Below, piece by piece: positions 43,687-59,415 of a stretch of DNA of 64,000 nt; position 1 is the stretch's first letter, and every line of letters begins with the position of its first letter. The stretch is from a virus (lineage: Duplodnaviria; Caudoviricetes). Below the pieces are notes generated by a model. That model worked only from the letters and a program-made list of their open reading frames with translations, did no database searches and was not told the origin of the DNA. Both the position numbers and the translations under genes were made by a program. Location: IMG/VR virus record IMGVR_UViG_3300032233_002657, positions 117,490-181,489 of that record; one strand, written 5' to 3'.

Positions 43687-44421
43687 TTACCTCCCGGCTT
43701 TTAGCCTGGCTAGTTTTCTACGTTGTGAAGCTAATGTTGGGCCTTTTTTAATTGGGGCTAGCGGTTTTTTATTAGTGTTCTTAACTATAATTGCTGGAAT
43801 GGACTTTTTAGCTGGGGTAGCAGGAACTGAAGCAATAGCTGGCTTATAGGCCAGCACAGGAGCTGTCACTACGCTGTTAGTAGGGTTTCCAGGTGCTCCG
43901 TAGTTAGGTTCTGGCTTAAACCCTAAATTAGTAATCTTTGCCTCTAGCCCAGCTACGCCCGCAGCCTTGTTATATCCTTCTTGTTTTATAGAAGCCCTAA
44001 CTGGCATTAATTGCTTTAAAGCGTTGTCTATGTATAAACGAACATTACTTGAAGGGGGTAAGAAGTTTGCGCCGTCCTCGCCTATGCTAAACGTAGGATC
44101 AATCTCTTTTTTAGTTATAGGGTCTATCTTATAAATGTCATAAGAAAGTATATCCAGATTTACTGGTATATTAGCCATTAAAAGTTTATAAATCCTGTCT
44201 AACCTATCAAGAGCAACAACTACTCGCCTAAGCGTATTGCGCGCAGTTGCTAACTGCCTATTTAAATCTGCAGCCTGATTAATAACTGTAGGTGAAGACC
44301 TATTAAGATCTTGCCTAACACTAAGGTTGTAAAGCGCCTGTGAAGCCGTATCAACGGTATCTTGGTCAAATCTTCCATATGGATTCTCTACGATAGCTCG
44401 TAGCCTCATTGCTTCATCCAT
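43687..44421 (-). CDS. Hypothetical coiled-coil protein with basic C-tail
   Basis: 244 aa, AGGAG RBS. Confidence 0.55.
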   Translation of the reverse strand: MDEAMRLRAIVENPYGRFDQDTVDTASQALYNLSVRQDLNRSSPTVINQAADLNRQLATARNTLRRVVVALDRLDRIYKLLMANIPVNLDILSYDIYKIDPITKKEIDPTFSIGEDGANFLPPSSNVRLYIDNALKQLMPVRASIKQEGYNKAAGVAGLEAKITNLGFKPEPNYGAPGNPTNSVVTAPVLAYKPAIASVPATPAKKSIPAIIVKNTNKKPLAPIKKGPTLASQRRKLARLKAGR

Positions 44422-45007
44422 TCTTATCTCCTACTTTTGTTGGTTTATCTTCAAAGAGAATCATCGAGATAGCTTCTACGAAAGACTCTGTTACAGGCCT
44501 CTCGTTCTTCCATATTGCTAAACCAAATCTTCTGTAAGGTCTTCCGGTCTTATCCTTATCGTGCCATCGGTCTTCAAAGTCCTGCCAAGGTATGTAGCCT
44601 CTAGCGTCATCAAGAGCTGGGTCTTCGAAGTAAACGTTCTTAGAGTCGTAGTCTATTGCTATAACGTAGTGGCCGCTATCTCCGGCTAACTCAGCAGGAG
44701 TAGAGGCCCAAGCCTGAACGGCGATGATTACTGGATGGCCTTCTTCCAAATAATACTTAAGCTCTTGATTAGTCATGCGCTCATGCCATACGGTGCTATA
44801 GCCTCTTGCCTTAGCTGCTTTGCTAAGCTCCATAGGGCTAGTACCGTCGATAGGGTCTGATTTTAATTCAGCGGCAAGAACAGCTTCATCAATAAACTCT
44901 CCCCAATAGCCCAGGATGGCACTAAGGGCAGCAGGCCCACAGGTGTAGCACGATTTCTGACGAGCGTCAGGGAGTGGTATTCTGTTTCCTCGCAGGGTCC
45001 TAGTCAT
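44414..45007 (-). CDS. C39-like cysteine peptidase (stand-alone)
   Basis: RQKSCYTCGPAAL (Q..C), SGHYVIAIDYD (H), YFEDP (D), F..RW. Confidence 0.85.
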   Translation of the reverse strand: MTRTLRGNRIPLPDARQKSCYTCGPAALSAILGYWGEFIDEAVLAAELKSDPIDGTSPMELSKAAKARGYSTVWHERMTNQELKYYLEEGHPVIIAVQAWASTPAELAGDSGHYVIAIDYDSKNVYFEDPALDDARGYIPWQDFEDRWHDKDKTGRPYRRFGLAIWKNERPVTESFVEAISMILFEDKPTKVGDKNG

Positions 45008-52005: not shown

Positions 52006-53673
52006 TTAAGGTGTGGGATCAGGCAGCTTACTGATTGGTGATGCGGACATGGCTAGAGACTGAAGATGCTGCAAAGCTTTTAGCCTAGCAGCAGCAGCTG
52101 CGGGAGCCATGTAATTAGTGTTGCTGTTCATGATATCAATAGCCTCAGCTGGGGTGTAGTAACCCCTGTTGGAGGCATTCCAGACATCTAAGTTCTTGTT
52201 ACCTCTTCGGCCAGCAGCGTCCGCTAAAACAAAGTGCGTTCTAGACCCAGCAAAATTGCGTTTAATCTTAGCCCTATGAGCATCACTCCAAGGGTGATCT
52301 ACAGGATCAATAGGTAACAACCTCGGGTTCTTAGCGGTAATGCCTGTCTCTTCCTTGAGCTCTCTCAAAGCGGCTACTAGAGGATCTTCTCCTGCTTCAA
52401 TTCCTCCGCCCGGTAAGGCAAACGACTTGTCGCTATCCCAGGTGCCACCATAGATCTTGCCCTTAGGATTTTGAGTGTAAACCTCAACCCTGTCACGCCA
52501 TGGTAGCTCTTCCTTAGTTACTCCCGCTGACTTTTCTTTATTAGCTAACCAAGCCTTAACCGCAGCAATTACTTTAGGGTCTTTTGCGTGGTTTAAGTAA
52601 TGTTGCGCAGGCATCTCCCCTACAAAATCCTCTCCTAAGTATTCATACTCAGGTATGGCATCTACATCGGTGCTCTGTATGGGCGTGACGGATATTGGCT
52701 TCACCGGCATGTGGCTTACATACTCTGTTGACTTATTCCACTTGCCCAGCTCGTTATCCTCTCTATCAATCTTTGTAAATGCAGAGGCTGGAAGTTTATA
52801 TAGGTAACCGCCAGGAGTATGACCAAGCAGTGCTTTACGCCCAGTCTGCTCGTCAATCAGTCTATGATACACGGAGTTTTTTATCTTATCTTTTACAGCT
52901 TGATACTCTGCCGTTGGGTTTGCTGCAAAGGCTGAGCTGGGGGAATCGCCAGCAAACACTACGGGCGCGTTATACTCATGCCCAAATGACTTTTTAGAGT
53001 TGTAGCTGGGATCAAGCGAATCAAATTTCTTACCAGAAGCGTGGTATAGGAAGTCCCTATCCGTAACGGGTCCTTGGCTTAGAATACGCATGTTAGGGTC
53101 GTTAGCTATGTACTCGTGGTGACTAGCCAGCTTACTCACCGCATTATCCTCAGTAACTCTCTTCTTCTTACACCCTACTGGAATATAGAACCCCAGTTGT
53201 GGAGACGTCTCCAATCCGTAGCTCTTCCTGATATCTTCTAAGTCGTTGCTCTTAATAGAAATAGCCCATAGCTTGTCATAGTCACCTGTTGCAGGCAACT
53301 CAACTATTGGGCCAAGAGTGTAGTGATAAGAATGACCTCTCTCAGTGATGTGGCTAGTGCCGCCTAGCTTGTCTACTTCTTCCTTAGTCATGACCTTGAT
53401 AGCGCATTCAGTCCTATTGTTGCGAACTACGAACTCAGCTCCTGGCTCATCTAAGGCGTCAAAGACACCTTTGATAAGCGAAGAGGGCACTGTTAGTTCT
53501 AAGTTACCGCTAGGGCCTGCTTGAAGCCTACCAGCAAGAGCGTGTACAGATGTGTGCTCTGCATTCTTGTTCATAAGACCATGAGCCTGCCCAAACAAGA
53601 ACATCTCAGCGTGAAGAGCTTTGAGCCACTCAGCGCCTTTGATGATGCCTAAGGATAGCGGGGGTATGGTCAT
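52006..53673 (-). CDS. Tri-domain protein: degenerate 2H-phosphoesterase-like / ADP-ribosyltransferase-like / NUDIX hydrolase
   Basis: The NUDIX box GGGIEAGEDPLVAALRELKEETG is unambiguous. The middle domain LYHAS..F..P...VVFA...GYLYKL...EYVS..PVKP is ART-like. The N-domain has 2H-like spacing without the His residues. Likely start MTIPP (53673, TAATG coupling). Confidence 0.7.
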   Translation of the reverse strand: MTIPPLSLGIIKGAEWLKALHAEMFLFGQAHGLMNKNAEHTSVHALAGRLQAGPSGNLELTVPSSLIKGVFDALDEPGAEFVVRNNRTECAIKVMTKEEVDKLGGTSHITERGHSYHYTLGPIVELPATGDYDKLWAISIKSNDLEDIRKSYGLETSPQLGFYIPVGCKKKRVTEDNAVSKLASHHEYIANDPNMRILSQGPVTDRDFLYHASGKKFDSLDPSYNSKKSFGHEYNAPVVFAGDSPSSAFAANPTAEYQAVKDKIKNSVYHRLIDEQTGRKALLGHTPGGYLYKLPASAFTKIDREDNELGKWNKSTEYVSHMPVKPISVTPIQSTDVDAIPEYEYLGEDFVGEMPAQHYLNHAKDPKVIAAVKAWLANKEKSAGVTKEELPWRDRVEVYTQNPKGKIYGGTWDSDKSFALPGGGIEAGEDPLVAALRELKEETGITAKNPRLLPIDPVDHPWSDAHRAKIKRNFAGSRTHFVLADAAGRRGNKNLDVWNASNRGYYTPAEAIDIMNSNTNYMAPAAAAARLKALQHLQSLAMSASPISKLPDPTP

Positions 53674-54209
53674 TAGCACTTCCATTTGCGTAAAGCTTTG
53701 TTGATTCGGCTATCTGGATCATTTGCAGTTTTCTTAGAGGTAAGCTTAGACTTCATTCCGCCCATACGAGCGCAGAAGCTACTTTTTCTAGCTCCGCCTT
53801 CAGGCTGAGGTCTCTTTATATCTTGGCCTTTAGCTTTTAAGCTCTTTCGGCCTTTCTCGTTTAGGCCTCCGTCTGGGTTCTTGCCTTCTTTTCTCTGCCA
53901 CGCAGGAGATGCCTTCTTCTCTGATTCTTTTTCCTTCTTCTTACCCACGGGGCGACAAGAGCCAGAAGTTAAAGCTTTAGTACCTGGTACGCGCTCGTAG
54001 CCGCTCCAGCACTTAGCTTCCTTCTCCGATATCGCTGTTACTTTTTTCCAGTTCTTTGAATCAGGGTAATCTTTGTCTCCAGGCTTTGCTGCAGACTCTC
54101 CTCTTTCTTTTTTGGCTCTTATATTAGCCCATAGGCCTGGCTTGTTAGCTGATGCGGCTAACTTGCCCATGAGTGCTCCAAACTCTGCTGCTTTTTCTAG
54201 TTTGCTCAT
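53673..54209 (-). CDS. Leader-A protein carrying three small basic modules
   Basis: Start MSKLEKAAEFGALMGKLA (54209, AGGAG RBS); modules PGLWANIRAK, CWSGYERVPG..GSC and PAWQRKEGKNPDGGLN..SFCARM each follow a KxA. Confidence 0.7.
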   Translation of the reverse strand: MSKLEKAAEFGALMGKLAASANKPGLWANIRAKKERGESAAKPGDKDYPDSKNWKKVTAISEKEAKCWSGYERVPGTKALTSGSCRPVGKKKEKESEKKASPAWQRKEGKNPDGGLNEKGRKSLKAKGQDIKRPQPEGGARKSSFCARMGGMKSKLTSKKTANDPDSRINKALRKWKC

Positions 54210-54392
54210 AGTTAGTACTCCTACGTGCTTAAAGGTCTTAGCTCTTCGAGGCATTATACTATTTAAGGCGGGTCTATGCATACTGATTTATGCATTTACG
54301 CTATGTTTCAGTATCGCCTGTAGAAGACTTATAGTATATATCAGACAAATATAACTGTTTATAATTATTTATCTAGAGTAAGAAGCTTACCG

Positions 54393-55214
54393 ATGAGGAA
54401 ACCGCCTAAAATCATAAATGGCAAATTTATAAAGATTCACGAAGCAAACCAATTCTTTAGCCATGTGACAGTAATGATGCTTGAGCATTTTGATAACCCA
54501 ACATATGATAAAACAGTTTTTCTTCTTGGAACTTATCTTTTTGAGCCTGTAAAAGAAATAAAGAAAAAGTTTCCAGGTTATAAGATTGTGGTGTATCAGC
54601 TAGAGCAGCTTATGGGTGGCTCCAATTGGCGTAGTATAAAAACAACTATACCCAACATGGAAGGGGCTGATGAAATATGGGATTTTGATTATATAAACGA
54701 AGCGTTCTTAGACAGGAAGGGCGTAAAAGTCGATCGTCTGGTGCCTATGCTGCATACAAGTGCTTTACAGAGAATAGCTTTTAATGAAGACCCTTTCTTT
54801 GATGTTCTATTCTACGGCTATATGAATGAACGCCGGTTTAAGATTTTCCATCATCTGCAGAAAAAGCTATACAACGAGATTAAGTTAAACTGGATATACG
54901 GATCATGCGACATAGACAGGTATATACAAGACAGTAAAACAATACTTAATATACACGCCTTTGAGCCATACAATCGGCAAGAGCAGGTTAGAATGTTTTA
55001 TCCCGTAATTAATTATAAAACAGTTATTAGTGAAACAAGTCAGTTCAACAACTTATTAGGTAGCGTGATAGAGTCTTCAATAGTAGATCTGGTTGATGTT
55101 ATAAGACACGTGTGCCAAGGTGATGTCTGGAGAGAATTTGGAAAGCAGGCAGAGACAAACTTCAAACATAAAACACAACTATTTATAGATACAAATGAAA
55201 ACACGCCTAGCTGA
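54393..55214 (+). CDS. Glycosyltransferase-like (GT-B) protein
   Basis: YQLEQL, ADEIWDF, DVLFYG..NERR, SKTILNIH, EQVR, VISE. Confidence 0.65.
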   Translation: MRKPPKIINGKFIKIHEANQFFSHVTVMMLEHFDNPTYDKTVFLLGTYLFEPVKEIKKKFPGYKIVVYQLEQLMGGSNWRSIKTTIPNMEGADEIWDFDYINEAFLDRKGVKVDRLVPMLHTSALQRIAFNEDPFFDVLFYGYMNERRFKIFHHLQKKLYNEIKLNWIYGSCDIDRYIQDSKTILNIHAFEPYNRQEQVRMFYPVINYKTVISETSQFNNLLGSVIESSIVDLVDVIRHVCQGDVWREFGKQAETNFKHKTQLFIDTNENTPS

Positions 55215-55216
55215 GT

Positions 55217-55681
55217 TTACTTGCTCATAAACTTAGCTGATATCTCTTCAGGGGTAAGTGTTTTCTTAGGTGTTTGTGCTTTTCGACTTAAATATACTTC
55301 CTCTCTAGCCTTATTGGAAGCTCTAGCAATCATGTGATCGATTGCTTCCTCTTCTTTTTTCTTATTAACACTAGCAAGGTGTTTCTGATCTTCTCTCTTA
55401 GCTTCGTCCTTTTTATGCACGGAGCCTCCTGCAAGTGCGCCTACTAACCCACCTACGCCTGCTCCAGTCAAAGCTCTTCTTAACTTACCTTCTTCTGTTC
55501 CAGCTAAGTAGTCATAAAGGGCGGTACCGCCACCGCCTACAAGGGCACCGATACCGGCTCCAGCCGCGGTTGGAGAATTAAGAATGCCAGATCGGCTAAG
55601 CCCTACGCCTAACGCAGAGCCTAGTCCGGCTTGCTTTCCCATTCTAGCCCCGAAGGCTGCTGCTTTTTCAAATCTGTTCAT
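55217..55681 (-). CDS. Leader-A glycine-zipper protein
   Basis: MNRFEKAAAFGARMGKQA, then GAGIGALVGGGG..YDYL..LRRALTGAGVGG. Confidence 0.7.
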   Translation of the reverse strand: MNRFEKAAAFGARMGKQAGLGSALGVGLSRSGILNSPTAAGAGIGALVGGGGTALYDYLAGTEEGKLRRALTGAGVGGLVGALAGGSVHKKDEAKREDQKHLASVNKKKEEEAIDHMIARASNKAREEVYLSRKAQTPKKTLTPEEISAKFMSK

Positions 55682-55707
55682 TGCTATTTCCTAGAGTTAA
55701 TTGCTGT

Positions 55708-56346
55708 TTAGTCCTCATCGCTTATTAAAGGATTCTTTTTAGAAGGGATATAACCGTCGTTCTTACCTGGAAGCGTAGGCGTAGGACGGGACGGTGGGGT
55801 ATCTTTTACATCGTTAAACTTGTCTGAGGGGAACGGTGGGTATATTTCTTGGTCTCGTAAGGACGGGCCTGCGGAGAATGGCCCTGTCTTAGTATTATTA
55901 GGCCATGCGTAAGGATGGTCATTCTTATGGATTTCACGACTATTGCCTATTGAGTTGTCAAAAGCTCTAAGTGCAGCAGCCTGCGGAGAGTTCTTTGGAT
56001 GCAGCCCAGCCGTTGCGGGGCCTTTAGGCAAAAGTTTAAGATAGTCTTGAGCTAACATAGCTGAAGCATCGTAGTTTAACGTCCCACCAGCTTGAGCGTT
56101 TTCTTGAAAACGGCTTCGGCCACCACCTGTATATTGGTTAACAATAGGGGATTGGTACTTAGTCGGGTTATAATAGGCGCTCCTTGGATCTTGATCTACT
56201 CCAAAATGCGGGTGATCAGGCGTGTCTTTAAAATGGTGAGCGTCTTCGCTCTCTGCGCTCGGCGATAATTTTTGATTTTTTAAATCACTTAGTGCCCTCT
56301 TGCCCATCATGGCTCCAAAGGCTGCTGCTTTTTCAAATCTGTTCAT
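55708..56346 (-). CDS. Leader-A Pro-rich protein
   Basis: MNRFEKAAAFGAMMGKRA, then unrelated disordered cargo. Confidence 0.7.
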   Translation of the reverse strand: MNRFEKAAAFGAMMGKRALSDLKNQKLSPSAESEDAHHFKDTPDHPHFGVDQDPRSAYYNPTKYQSPIVNQYTGGGRSRFQENAQAGGTLNYDASAMLAQDYLKLLPKGPATAGLHPKNSPQAAALRAFDNSIGNSREIHKNDHPYAWPNNTKTGPFSAGPSLRDQEIYPPFPSDKFNDVKDTPPSRPTPTLPGKNDGYIPSKKNPLISDED

Positions 56347-56367
56347 TGCTATCCTCTATTGTTAAAA

Positions 56368-57162
56368 CTACTTTTTACCGGTAAACCAATTATGCAATAA
56401 GTTAGCAGGCTCTGTAAACGCATTATCAGTAATAAACGGATAATCTTTGCTTATGTGCTTAAACTGATCAGCCCTGCTTGAGTTGTTGTAAATAGCCTGC
56501 TGCCCCATAGCTTTAGCCTTGTCTAAAAGGCTAGCGTTGTCTTTAGGTGCCATAGCTGCATTTGCTAAAGTAGTTCTTGCTAGTTCGGTGCCGCCGTATC
56601 CGGCTAAGCCGCCTAAGCCTCCACCTATCAAAGAGCCTGTCAAAGCTCCACCTATAACACTAGGTCTGTTCTTTACAAACTTTATTCTTCCTTTACTGTC
56701 TCTCTTAGTTCTGCCCATATCATCAAGCTCTGGCTCATCTGATTCATCGTCTCCTGATAGAGCGCCCAAGCCTCCTATGACTCCTCCAGCCAATGCGCCT
56801 GCGCCTCCCAAGCCTATGGCGTTAGCAACACTAGGGTCTAGAGAGCCTACTTTGCTTAAAGCTGGTGCTAGCGCGCCTAATACAGAACCTTCTTGAGTTT
56901 TCTTTGAAGAATCGTTGTAAGCCTCTATGGCTTTTATCTGAGCGAGCCTTCCCAAGCCGCCTAGGGCTGCGCCTAATGCCATTCTTGTGTAGCGCTCTCC
57001 TCTGGGCCTATCTATACCTGAGAATTGGTCATAGATGCCAGCGCTGCCTGCGCCTAGCAGAGTAGCTAAGATAGTTCCTCTAGAAGAGTCCTCTACAGGT
57101 ATGTAGCCGGCGGTCTTGCCCATTCTAGCCCCGAACTCTGCTGCTTTATCATACTTGTTCAT
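56368..57162 (-). CDS. Leader-A glycine-zipper protein
   Basis: MNKYDKAAEFGARMGKTA, then two Gly-zipper hairpins. Confidence 0.7.
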   Translation of the reverse strand: MNKYDKAAEFGARMGKTAGYIPVEDSSRGTILATLLGAGSAGIYDQFSGIDRPRGERYTRMALGAALGGLGRLAQIKAIEAYNDSSKKTQEGSVLGALAPALSKVGSLDPSVANAIGLGGAGALAGGVIGGLGALSGDDESDEPELDDMGRTKRDSKGRIKFVKNRPSVIGGALTGSLIGGGLGGLAGYGGTELARTTLANAAMAPKDNASLLDKAKAMGQQAIYNNSSRADQFKHISKDYPFITDNAFTEPANLLHNWFTGKK

Positions 57163-57172
57163 AGTCTAATCC

Positions 57173-57589
57173 TTATGCTGCGTCTTGGTTAGACATTATA
57201 CTAAGCCCGCCGTTGTCTAATCTACGTCTTAGTGATCTAAGCTCATCTTCTAATTGAATAACCTTAGTTCTTAACTCATCGTTCTCTTTGCGGCAAGATC
57301 GCCTGTCGTTGTGAAGCTCTTCTATGTCCTTTTTAAGGTTCTTCATCTCTTCTCGTAGAAAGCTCTGCATGTCTTTAGATGACTCCACTATGAGTCTGTA
57401 CTCACTGAAGAGCGTATCATTCTCGTGGTGCTCTAGGCGCTGTTTCTTAAATATTATCTCTTTGGTTTTGATGTCAGCTTCCTTTGCAGCTTTGAGTCTA
57501 CTGACATAAATAAAGGAAATGGCCCCCGCGAGGGAGCCAGCCGCACCAAATATAATGCTTATAGCAGCTAATACTATATTAAAGTCCAT
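57173..57589 (-). CDS. N-terminal TM plus coiled-coil protein
   Basis: Hydrophobic residues 3-29, then heptad-like coil; holin/spanin-like architecture, function unassigned. Confidence 0.55.
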   Translation of the reverse strand: MDFNIVLAAISIIFGAAGSLAGAISFIYVSRLKAAKEADIKTKEIIFKKQRLEHHENDTLFSEYRLIVESSKDMQSFLREEMKNLKKDIEELHNDRRSCRKENDELRTKVIQLEDELRSLRRRLDNGGLSIMSNQDAA

Positions 57590-57600
57590 ATGATTGGGTC

Positions 57601-58221
57601 CTACTGCAAGTTGTTAACAGGGGGGTAGCGATTAAATTGCACAGGTCGCTTTGGCAAGTTAGAAAACCCGTTACGCACAAAGCCCTTAGAGTTGTCCAGG
57701 TGATCAGTGTCAATATCCACTATGCCATCTTCAGACACTCGTCTTCCGAAAGGGCTGGCTATAGCCGTCTGCGCGTCATACTGCATTGCTCGTGAACGAG
57801 CTGCTTGCACAGGGTCTGTTGTGTCATATTCATCATTAGGGCCGAAATAATCACCTAAAGGCCTAGGGGCCCTAGGGGTTGATGGCTTAGGAGTTAGCCC
57901 CTGATTTTGGTATATGCTGACTGGGTCGGGTTTGTCGGGCCTCACTGATCTGCTGTTAACTGAATTCCACTTAGGGGTCATAACCTCATGACCTGAGGCT
58001 GAACCCGGCGTGGGTGTAACGTTGTAGTTGGCACGCATGTTCCTATCATCAGCAGCGTTTTGAGCATTAGCTCTAGAAGTAGCTTGAGCCGCTTGAGCAT
58101 CAAGGTTACCTGGGCCTGGCTTATTAGCATCAGGGCTAAAATGGCCTGGTGGAAACGTTTTTTCATCTGCTCTCTTAAAGAACATTCTATGAAGCTTTGC
58201 TATCTTAGTAAAATTACGCAT
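57601..58221 (-). CDS. Leader-B disordered protein
   Basis: MRNFTKIAKLHRMFFKRA, then Pro/Asn-rich cargo. Confidence 0.7.
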   Translation of the reverse strand: MRNFTKIAKLHRMFFKRADEKTFPPGHFSPDANKPGPGNLDAQAAQATSRANAQNAADDRNMRANYNVTPTPGSASGHEVMTPKWNSVNSRSVRPDKPDPVSIYQNQGLTPKPSTPRAPRPLGDYFGPNDEYDTTDPVQAARSRAMQYDAQTAIASPFGRRVSEDGIVDIDTDHLDNSKGFVRNGFSNLPKRPVQFNRYPPVNNLQ

Positions 58222-58245
58222 GATTGTTACGTCCCATTATAAGGT

Positions 58246-58776
58246 TTACCGGGAAAACGGGGCTACCCGTGGTGTAAGCGTTTCCCCAGCCCCATCGCCA
58301 AACCCATGTGTTGGGTTTTCCCCAAAAAAGCTAATGCCTTGAGTATTGATGCCCTTACCGCTTGCGTAGCCTTGGTTTGTTGGGTCTGCGGGTCCACCAA
58401 ACCTGCCTGTAGTCTTCATAGTGTGCTGCTGAGCTAACTCATTGCCTAGGAGCTGTTTGCTAGCAGGGCCTGTGGGCCTAAGAGGATTGGGTATGGCTGG
58501 GTGTGCAGAAACTGGAACACGCTGAGAATCTGGGTTTGGGCGGTTACCCTTAGCTAGGATATTTGCGGTTACCCCAAGTGTTGCATTAGGTGACAGGTAG
58601 GACTTAGGGTCAAAATTGCTACCAGGAGGACGCACTAAGGATCCAGCTGCCGCGTCGGAGCCCCTGCTAGCTGACATCATCTCTTCATTGTTTTTAAACT
58701 TCTTAATTGGGGCTGCACCCTCTGCCCTCTTAAAGAACACTCTATGAAGATTCGCTAACTTATTGAAACTACGCAT
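58246..58776 (-). CDS. Leader-B disordered protein
   Basis: MRSFNKLANLHRVFFKRA; shares KNNEE...SD.AAGSL and IPNPLR with the next gene. Confidence 0.7.
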   Translation of the reverse strand: MRSFNKLANLHRVFFKRAEGAAPIKKFKNNEEMMSASRGSDAAAGSLVRPPGSNFDPKSYLSPNATLGVTANILAKGNRPNPDSQRVPVSAHPAIPNPLRPTGPASKQLLGNELAQQHTMKTTGRFGGPADPTNQGYASGKGINTQGISFFGENPTHGFGDGAGETLTPRVAPFSR

Positions 58777-58817
58777 GGTTGTTACTTCCTTGTAAAAAAT
58801 ACTGAGTTAAAACACTA

Positions 58818-59390
58818 TTAAAGATTAGGGCCTATGTTAGGTCCTGTATATCTTCCCTTCCTCATTGAATTATCATACTCAGACTTTAAATGATCTGGGC
58901 TAAGAAGATTATCGTTTTCGCCTCTTCTTAAAGGATTAGGTATGCCTGGAGCTACAGGTACAGGAACTACTTTCTTTTTAGCTTGTGAGATTGGTATTTC
59001 TGGATTGTTTCTCACCTTGATTTTACCGCTAGCAGCAGCTTCATCAAATCTAGGCTTAGAAGCTGAGTCTATAGTAGCCCCTGGAAACCAGGGAAACCTA
59101 GGCATATCTAGAGTATCTGCAATAGCGTGCCTAAGAGTAGAGCCCTTGGGGGTGAATTGGTTTACTTGGCTTAGATTTGAACCATCCCCGTGAAGAAGTG
59201 AGCCAGCTGCATGGTCAGAGGCTCTATTAGCTTTTATAGCTTCTTCATTGTTTTTGTATTTCATTCCAGGTCTATACCCTGGAGCAACAGATGGATCTGG
59301 AGCCAGAGGCTGTGAGCCGTCATAGAGGGGCGCCTCAGATCGCTTAAAGAACATGTTATGAAGATTAGCTAACTTATTAAAATTACGCAT
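58818..59390 (-). CDS. Leader-B disordered protein
   Basis: ATG at 59390 gives MRNFNKLANLHNMFFKRS; paralog of 58246-58776. Confidence 0.7.
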   Translation of the reverse strand: MRNFNKLANLHNMFFKRSEAPLYDGSQPLAPDPSVAPGYRPGMKYKNNEEAIKANRASDHAAGSLLHGDGSNLSQVNQFTPKGSTLRHAIADTLDMPRFPWFPGATIDSASKPRFDEAAASGKIKVRNNPEIPISQAKKKVVPVPVAPGIPNPLRRGENDNLLSPDHLKSEYDNSMRKGRYTGPNIGPNL

Positions 59391-59415
59391 ACTTGGGCAC
59401 CTTATGTTAAACAAA

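Follow-up and report, generated by a model that had tools for sequence, protein, structure and literature searches.

The locus described here raises the question of why one phage gene should chain a short N-terminal leader, a 2H phosphoesterase-like domain, an ADP-ribosyltransferase (ART)-like domain and a NUDIX hydrolase domain, with a K-x-A motif at each junction, and what could become of these parts. The gene lies in the window, the stretch of 64,000 nucleotides analysed here, which is the final 64 kb (positions 117,490 to 181,489) of the 181-kb IMG/VR virus record IMGVR_UViG_3300032233_002657, a record that is about 88% complete. Because the record encodes fused multisubunit RNA-polymerase chains, a large helicase and a ribonucleotide reductase, we take its source to be an uncultured jumbo phage with a genome of about 200 kb and a multisubunit RNA polymerase of its own. 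A modular cassette organisation with K-x-A junctions is very likely for this gene. The explanation that we put forward for it, slightly better than an even bet, is that the product is a polyvalent, capsid-targeted cargo polyprotein which is cut by a phage protease at K-x-A.

An uninterrupted frame of 559 codons runs on the minus strand over 52006-53685. The ATG at 53673 is probably the true start, because homologues begin at this second methionine (MTIPP) and because it overlaps the stop codon of the upstream gene as TAATG. The gene would then occupy 52006-53673, with 555 codons and a stop, and the ATG at 53685 would be an alternative upstream start. The limits given in the original prediction match this likely gene, and every string that it quoted was found at its place. 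Amino acid (aa) positions are counted here on the 559-codon frame. The leader, delimited by its alignment and an AlphaFold2 (AF2) model, covers aa 5-42 (53560-53673) and ends in NKNA (aa 39-42, 53560-53571). It is followed by a degenerate 2H-SAK phosphoesterase domain at aa 43-187 (53125-53559), which ends in the disordered linker VSKLA (SKLA at aa 184-187, with KLA at 53125-53133). The 200-aa ART-fold domain at aa 188-387 (52525-53124) ends in NKEKSA (EKSA at aa 384-387, with KSA at 52525-52533), and the NUDIX hydrolase domain makes up aa 388-559 (52009-52524). From its sequence, the protein is thus a helical leader followed by three separable modules. The domain identities (2H, ART fold and NUDIX) can be assigned with high confidence; all three had been called before, and domains 1 and 2 also model as such. 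A misassembly or an artefactual fusion of three genes was rejected, as the same frame and architecture were found on independent contigs. A tblastn search with the whole protein (E 1e-5) gave no match in 50,697 phage records.

The claim that K-x-A motifs delimit the modules could be examined through the homologues. The BLAST breakpoints of about 70 homologues fall at aa 187 (n=55) and at aa 387-392 (n=27), and SKLA and EKSA coincide with these break positions. K-x-A was present within 8 residues in 57% of 128 non-redundant junction contexts, compared with 9.4% of random windows, a six-fold difference that carries no correction for phylogeny and is inflated by the shared ancestry of the homologues. 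It also ranks among the most enriched gapped dipeptides at junctions. The K-x-A sites are therefore real boundaries, and that part of the claim stands. As regards their number, it does not, since the protein contains 4 K-x-A motifs where 4.4 are expected from composition. Enrichment by count was accordingly rejected as an argument: the count within the protein is uninformative, and it is the placement that is above chance in the sequences compared.

The modules recur in more than 100 relatives, either combined with other cargo or encoded by genes of their own that carry a leader. In different phages, the VSKLA junction is followed by at least 12 distinct modules, including an acylphosphatase, a second NUDIX, a 'FYHGS/FYHST' module and Gly/Pro-rich segments, and the other cargo found in the fusions of relatives includes acylphosphatase, further NUDIX domains and a LigD phosphoesterase. 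The linker K[GS]A[AG]VTKEEL stands before either the NUDIX or the ART-like domain, and both of these modules also open separate proteins behind short leaders ending in ...EKEA or ...AKLA. The C-terminal tail of the target protein, ...SPISKLPDPTP, resembles a decayed VSKLA linker, and in relatives the same NUDIX tail goes on as KEKSA plus a further module. Full copies of the MNRLEKAAAFGAMMGKRA leader, including its methionine, are also found internally, where they join modules in the fusion proteins of relatives.

Seven genes directly upstream of the target gene (53673-59414, minus strand) form a leader-gene array, as determined from their translations and a motif scan. Their leaders belong to two 18-residue families, of the MNRFEKAAAFGAxMGKxA type and the MRxFxKLAxLHxxFFKR[AS] type, ending in K-x-[AS], and a genome-wide motif scan found both types confined to this locus. 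The leader of the target protein has an F-G-x-x-x-G...K-x-A pattern which resembles these. In its AF2 model, a helix at residues 7-34 is followed by a coil at residues 35-44 containing KNA, and both the KNA and the SKLA sites fall in loops with a low predicted local distance difference test score (pLDDT). Among dereplicated leaders of the 2H subfamily, K-x-[AG] occurs just before the LAGRL core, at a fixed distance and with differing flanks, in 64 out of 64, and K-x-A proper in 48 of them, compared with 13.4 in shuffles. Orthologous leader arrays flank the orthologue of the target gene in two related loci, L006 and L007. An ART-like homologue (P0088) belongs to a run of 11 or more consecutive genes on another 211-kb phage contig (L003:3358-10549), which carry nearly the same leader, M(R/K)ITESKLRxIIRE, on unrelated cargo; a stand-alone ART-PolyVal gene without the leader is located just upstream of that array (1802-2362). 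A genome-wide scan also showed K-x-A to be enriched (z 4-7) in four open reading frames (ORFs) of the head module. A leader shared by unrelated cargo and a motif that marks head proteins are both features of capsid cargo.

The target protein could therefore be loaded into the virion. The leader would direct it into the prohead along with its seven leader-bearing neighbours, a phage protease would cut it at K-x-A and free the domains, and the freed domains would be ejected into the host with the DNA. Delivery with the DNA after cutting is suggested by the way in which relatives reshuffle modules like cassettes. In the host, a protein or a nucleic-acid end could be modified by the ART-like domain at the expense of NAD+, and nucleoside-diphosphate-X compounds, for instance ADP-ribose-type molecules, NAD caps or alarmones, could be hydrolysed by the NUDIX domain. 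The role of the dead 2H domain may be non-catalytic, for instance to bind a ligand or to act as an anchor within the head. We judge the status of virion cargo, for which the arrays argue, to be reasonably probable, and cleavage at K-x-A itself to have a little less than an even chance.

Another explanation for the same junctions is that the product stays uncut, being packaged or acting as a single multi-domain polypeptide, in which the K-x-A linkers are flexible joints and hot spots of cassette recombination instead of protease sites. The linkers VSKLA[SG] and K[SG]A[AG]VTKEEL are near-verbatim among close relatives, as expected for exchange homology, some polyvalent proteins, among them the N4 virion RNA polymerase, are packaged unprocessed (PMC5512222), and the lack of K-x-A enrichment within the target protein also agrees with this. 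However, distant relatives retain K-x-[AG] when the flanks differ (KAA, KQA, KTA, KEA), and head-module proteins, which do not undergo shuffling, are strongly enriched in the motif. It is also found at the end of the leaders of genes with a single domain, which have no need of a joint, and whole leaders with their methionine persist inside fusion proteins. We therefore consider an intact polypeptide unlikely.

The position of the gene could suggest a different role, as it lies outside the head module and adjoins glycan-tailoring genes. The product could then be a cytoplasmic multi-domain enzyme made after infection, with the leaders serving for membrane or compartment targeting or for assembly. 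A scan for sigma-70 promoters and terminators scored no higher than shuffles and is uninformative. On the other hand, relatives have conserved leader-cargo arrays around the orthologue, an array resembling that of the T4 internal proteins contains an ART-like homologue in another jumbo phage, and the motif of the target protein is the one that marks head-module proteins. A cytoplasmic enzyme is thus, in our view, even less likely than a packaged but uncut polypeptide.

Capsid-targeted cargo remains the explanation that we prefer. Domain 1 scored 21.8 bits (E 2.3e-4) against Pfam 2H-SAK (PF22547), below the gathering score of 27. That score is reached by homologues sharing 35-44% identity over some 170 aa (P0048, 36.4 bits), so that domain 1 is homologous to 2H-SAK by transitivity. 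Its AF2 model (pLDDT 72) consists of the leader helix, the KNA loop, an alpha/beta core and the disordered SKLA tail, and has a 2H fold, with matches that include Acb1, CPDase, LigT, ns2 and Usb1. AIKVM (aa 95-99) and FYIPV (aa 166-170) align to AHISV and FHITV of relatives at 35-44% identity, so the His and the Ser/Thr are replaced in both H-x-[ST] motifs. The loss of both motifs, previously suspected from the target alone, is borne out by this comparison with intact homologues. Near-clade members, including stand-alone forms, all carry degenerate motifs, and hydrolysis by the classical mechanism is unlikely for domain 1. Distant stand-alone forms retain active motifs, and one distant-clade homologue with an active 2H is encoded by a 205-kb phage carrying the same fused RNA polymerase.

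The ratios of synonymous to non-synonymous changes in domain 1 were 37:10 and 44:12 against two relatives, and nearly all of the replacements were in the leader or the linker. The 2H module is 95% identical in locus L006, where the flanking genes are 32-77% identical. Strong purifying selection of this kind indicates that the dead 2H domain is functional and not decaying. The module also exists on its own, as proteins of 183-196 aa ending just past VSKLA. Cysteine is present in the whole protein only at aa 94 and aa 172, both within domain 1, and domains 2 and 3 have none, as had been noted before.

For domain 2, there was no Pfam match at E up to 1 and no PDB sequence or PDB profile match; among 17 members of its family, Pfam gave one hit to ART-PolyVal at E 0.15. 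A Foldseek search against BFVD returned only weak, uncharacterised matches, and the ESM Atlas gave an uninformative result, unnamed clusters plus DUF6886 with a share of 12%. When 1.84 billion representatives were searched in full with HMMER, only 23 sequence clusters of this domain were identified, some of them stand-alone proteins of 200-240 aa and some of them modules in proteins of 840-1548 aa. The AF2 model of domain 2 is confident (pLDDT 92.4) and has the ART fold that had been predicted from the strings LYHAS (aa 213-217), VVFA (242-245), GYLY (293-296), EYVS (321-324) and PVKP (327-330). Invariant or near-invariant residues are H215 (LYHAS), E237, P241, H274, R308, E321 (STEYV) and Y347, and conserved aromatics are found at VVFA, SSAF and GYLY. 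H215, the aromatics and E321 are located on predicted strands of the model (25-30, 56-59, 107-112 and 128-137). We read domain 2 as a new ART-like family with an H-aromatic-E configuration, in which the presumed triad is placed by residue conservation and by the strands of the model rather than by superposition.

The closest solved folds to the model of domain 2 are Tpt1/KptA (PDB 9ld3, 9lda, 8tfi), and a second look gave 6.5 for KptA and 6.3 for P. horikoshii Tpt1. The alignments span only about residues 85-180 of the KptA/Tpt1 chain, which is the NAD-binding C-lobe. Tpt1/KptA have a two-lobe architecture, with a catalytic Arg/His tetrad that is partly in the N-lobe, whereas domain 2 has no N-lobe, only about 20 residues before its first ART strand, extra C-terminal helices (model residues 173-194) and no Pfam Tpt1 match. 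Tpt1 orthology was therefore rejected, as the N-terminal RNA-binding lobe is absent. Assignment to Pfam ART-PolyVal was rejected as well, because of the missing Pfam match and because an hhalign comparison of the domain-2 profile with a stand-alone ART-PolyVal protein aligned no more than 16 residues, those at the His strand, with a probability of 8%.

Domain 3 matched PF00293 at E 3.9e-12 (46.7 bits, cut-off 21.1). The complete NUDIX box reported earlier was recovered at aa 427-449 (52339-52407) by a regular expression for Gx5Ex7REUxEExGU. Its substrate class is less defined. The best PDB sequence matches were MutT and Ap4A hydrolase, the NCBIfam matches to RppH/MutT were weak and below cut-off, and overall the matches were distributed among MutT, Ap4A hydrolase, RppH and ADPRase, all far under the equivalog cut-offs. 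The X-loop, DHPWS, places a proline about 16 residues past the box, a position associated with ADP-ribose diphosphatases (PMC5389931); this is a weak lead only. A PHROG made up of portal-NUDIX fusions also matches the NUDIX part of the target protein, which speaks for a cargo context.

With these three domains, a single pathway could be envisaged, either an ADP-ribose writer/eraser pair, as the original prediction had suggested, or a Tpt1-type removal of RNA 2'-phosphates. In the second route, a Tpt1-like transferase would be followed by a 2H CPDase acting on Appr>p and by a NUDIX hydrolase acting on ADP-ribose. This would agree with Tpt1/KptA being the closest folds of domain 2, with the hydrolysis of Appr>p by 2H enzymes (an Appr>p CPDase is among the fold matches of domain 1) and with the proline of the NUDIX X-loop. 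The Tpt1-2H-NUDIX route is contradicted, however, because the catalytic motifs of the 2H domain are lost and because only the C-lobe of Tpt1 was matched. The writer/eraser idea is weakened because domain 2 and NUDIX do not consistently co-occur: they are joined in a minority of architectures, in reversed order in P0007, and elsewhere domain 2 has acylphosphatase, DUF6321 or LigD_N as its partner, or no partner at all. The NUDIX sequence matches are also generic. One pathway for all three domains is therefore improbable, and the Tpt1-type route equally so.

Several results weigh against a capsid-targeted polyprotein that is cut at K-x-A, in addition to the unremarkable K-x-A count and the ancestry-inflated junction statistics. 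The leader of the target protein is longer than the 18-residue leaders of its neighbours and only loosely like them. The fold matches are of moderate Z only (5-7), and a Foldseek search of both models against the PDB gave nothing at E 0.001 or better. The prohead protease families S77 and S78 of Pfam were not found in the 181-kb record, and a Pfam search of ten head-module and neighbouring ORFs gave DUF6321 only, with none for the head-module ORFs. The cleavage motifs of the systems known from other phages end in Glu, (L/I)xE in T4 and [AGS]xE in phiKZ/SPN3US; in T4 and the giant phages, the known proteases cleave behind Glu and not at K-x-A. If cleavage does take place, a head-maturation protease would be the main candidate. 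Alternatively, the leader proteins could be processed by a C39-type peptidase (44414-45007, minus strand); the two relatives that were examined both have it, with 64-94% identity, at the far end of the same region.

A broader and more tentative extension of the polyprotein explanation is that K-x-[AG] is the code of a head-maturation (or other phage) protease of undescribed specificity and that, together with the leaders, it makes up a plug-and-play delivery system. Any domain flanked by the code might then be loaded, released separately and injected, and dozens of effector modules might be shuffled between genes and polyproteins. The shuffled modules might include the Tpt1-like ART family and the dead 2H domain, the latter possibly as a pre-delivered binder of nucleotide signals.

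Other observations were made on the leaders and modules. The internal MNRLEKAAAFGAMMGKRA-type copies are located at L007:3907-4959 and L006:4552-6960. Some gene calls begin inside the leader (MMGKRA..., MGKRA..., MMGKQA...; L006:8822-9979, L006:15359-15964 and L007:13377-13760), and other genes begin with MNRFEKAA and then diverge, which suggests recombination or frame changes inside the leader itself. An N-terminal module, FRTFYHGT...ILRTGLDP, in the L007 and L006 fusion proteins is not recognised by Pfam and looks like another ART-type domain; it is also found directly after VSKLA in P0014 and P0028. In distant-clade homologues, a Cys-rich mini-module (TTYDCxCxGxCxCPxTCxCK...), bounded by LKAAA and GKTAA, stands between an active 2H and a NUDIX domain and may be a metal-binding knot. 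It is carried by P0059 (L002:8001-10373), which has two NUDIX domains, and by P0051, P0052, P0064-P0066 and P0072. The highest K-x-A enrichment of the genome is in an ORF of 371 aa (G000:C1:57511-58626, plus strand; 15 observed, 3.7 expected, z 7.1), about 59 kb upstream of the window and outside the head module of the window.

In the neighbourhood of the target gene, almost no PHROG matches were obtained. The gene immediately upstream (53673-54281, minus strand) probably starts at an internal methionine (MSKLEKAAEFGALMGKLA). Its product is built of small basic modules, the last of which is DUF6321 (Pfam E 1.7e-15). These modules recur in fusions, downstream of the ART-like domain of P0038 and at the C-terminal end of a protein of 802 aa in L006, so that modules move from one adjacent gene to another. 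The minus-strand array is broken by a lone plus-strand gene of 273 aa (54393-55214), which has no PHROG match, and the 2 kb around it have the lowest G+C of the window (0.41). A tRNA search found none.

If the polyprotein explanation is true, the ART-like domain would be a compact new ART family, with about 23 clusters worldwide and absent from Pfam, that is used as phage cargo and whose nearest fold relatives modify RNA and DNA ends. Domain 1 would be a viral pseudo-enzyme whose non-catalytic role can be tested; it could, for instance, soak up cyclic or 2'-5' nucleotides like a sponge or hold on to the head as an anchor. The K-x-A code and the leader would allow the entire injected proteome to be predicted, by sequence alone, for a large group of freshwater jumbo phages that are uncultured, and the modules would be a natural library of interchangeable early effectors, useful for the discovery of counter-defence. 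If the model fails, what is left is a well-documented case of cassette-style domain shuffling in polyvalent phage proteins.

The target protein resembles several known systems, one of them the polyvalent proteins of phages and conjugative elements (Iyer, Burroughs, Anand, de Souza, Aravind 2017; PMC5512222); for those of phages, packaging, delivery along with the DNA and release of the domains by proteolysis have been predicted. It carries at least two conflict-type domains in one phage polypeptide, the architectures of its homologues are variable, and 2H, ART and nucleotide hydrolase domains are likewise joined in single polyvalent polypeptides of highly variable architecture. The domains of that class include Pfam 2H-SAK (PF22547) and ART-PolyVal (PF18760), but the ART-like domain of the target protein is not ART-PolyVal and has Glu instead of Asp on the presumed catalytic strand. 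The target chain also has no MuF, portal or metallopeptidase domain, its 2H domain is catalytically degenerate, and recurrent K-x-A at the junctions is not described in PMC5512222. Acb1 and the other viral 2H phosphodiesterases (PDB 7t27, 4z5v, 9bkq, 9q2y) differ from the clade of the target protein, which lacks both HxT/S motifs, and domain 1 bears an N-terminal leader and a C-terminal linker that set it apart from the Acb1 type.

The T4 internal proteins and Alt carry a capsid-targeting sequence that is removed by gp21. In T4, as at our locus, short common leaders stand on unrelated cargo in a hyperplastic gene array, the injected proteins include an ART (Alt), and head proteins often carry the cleavage motif. 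The layout of the L003 array is also like that of the T4 internal-protein locus, whereas its presumptive cleavage motif is different from K-x-A, being of the Glu type. The ejection proteins of phiKZ/SPN3US, which the prohead protease cuts (PMC10052503), are grouped with these T4 proteins as cargo that is targeted to the capsid and processed by a protease. By its context, the target protein would fit this class. It differs from these systems in its candidate motif, K-x-[AG], and in the chaining of several cargo domains in one ORF with internal sites. What is new at this locus is the ART-like family, the pseudo-2H module, which is conserved, and a candidate code of K-x-A for processing and junctions, which is unlike the motifs ending in Glu of characterised phage head proteases.

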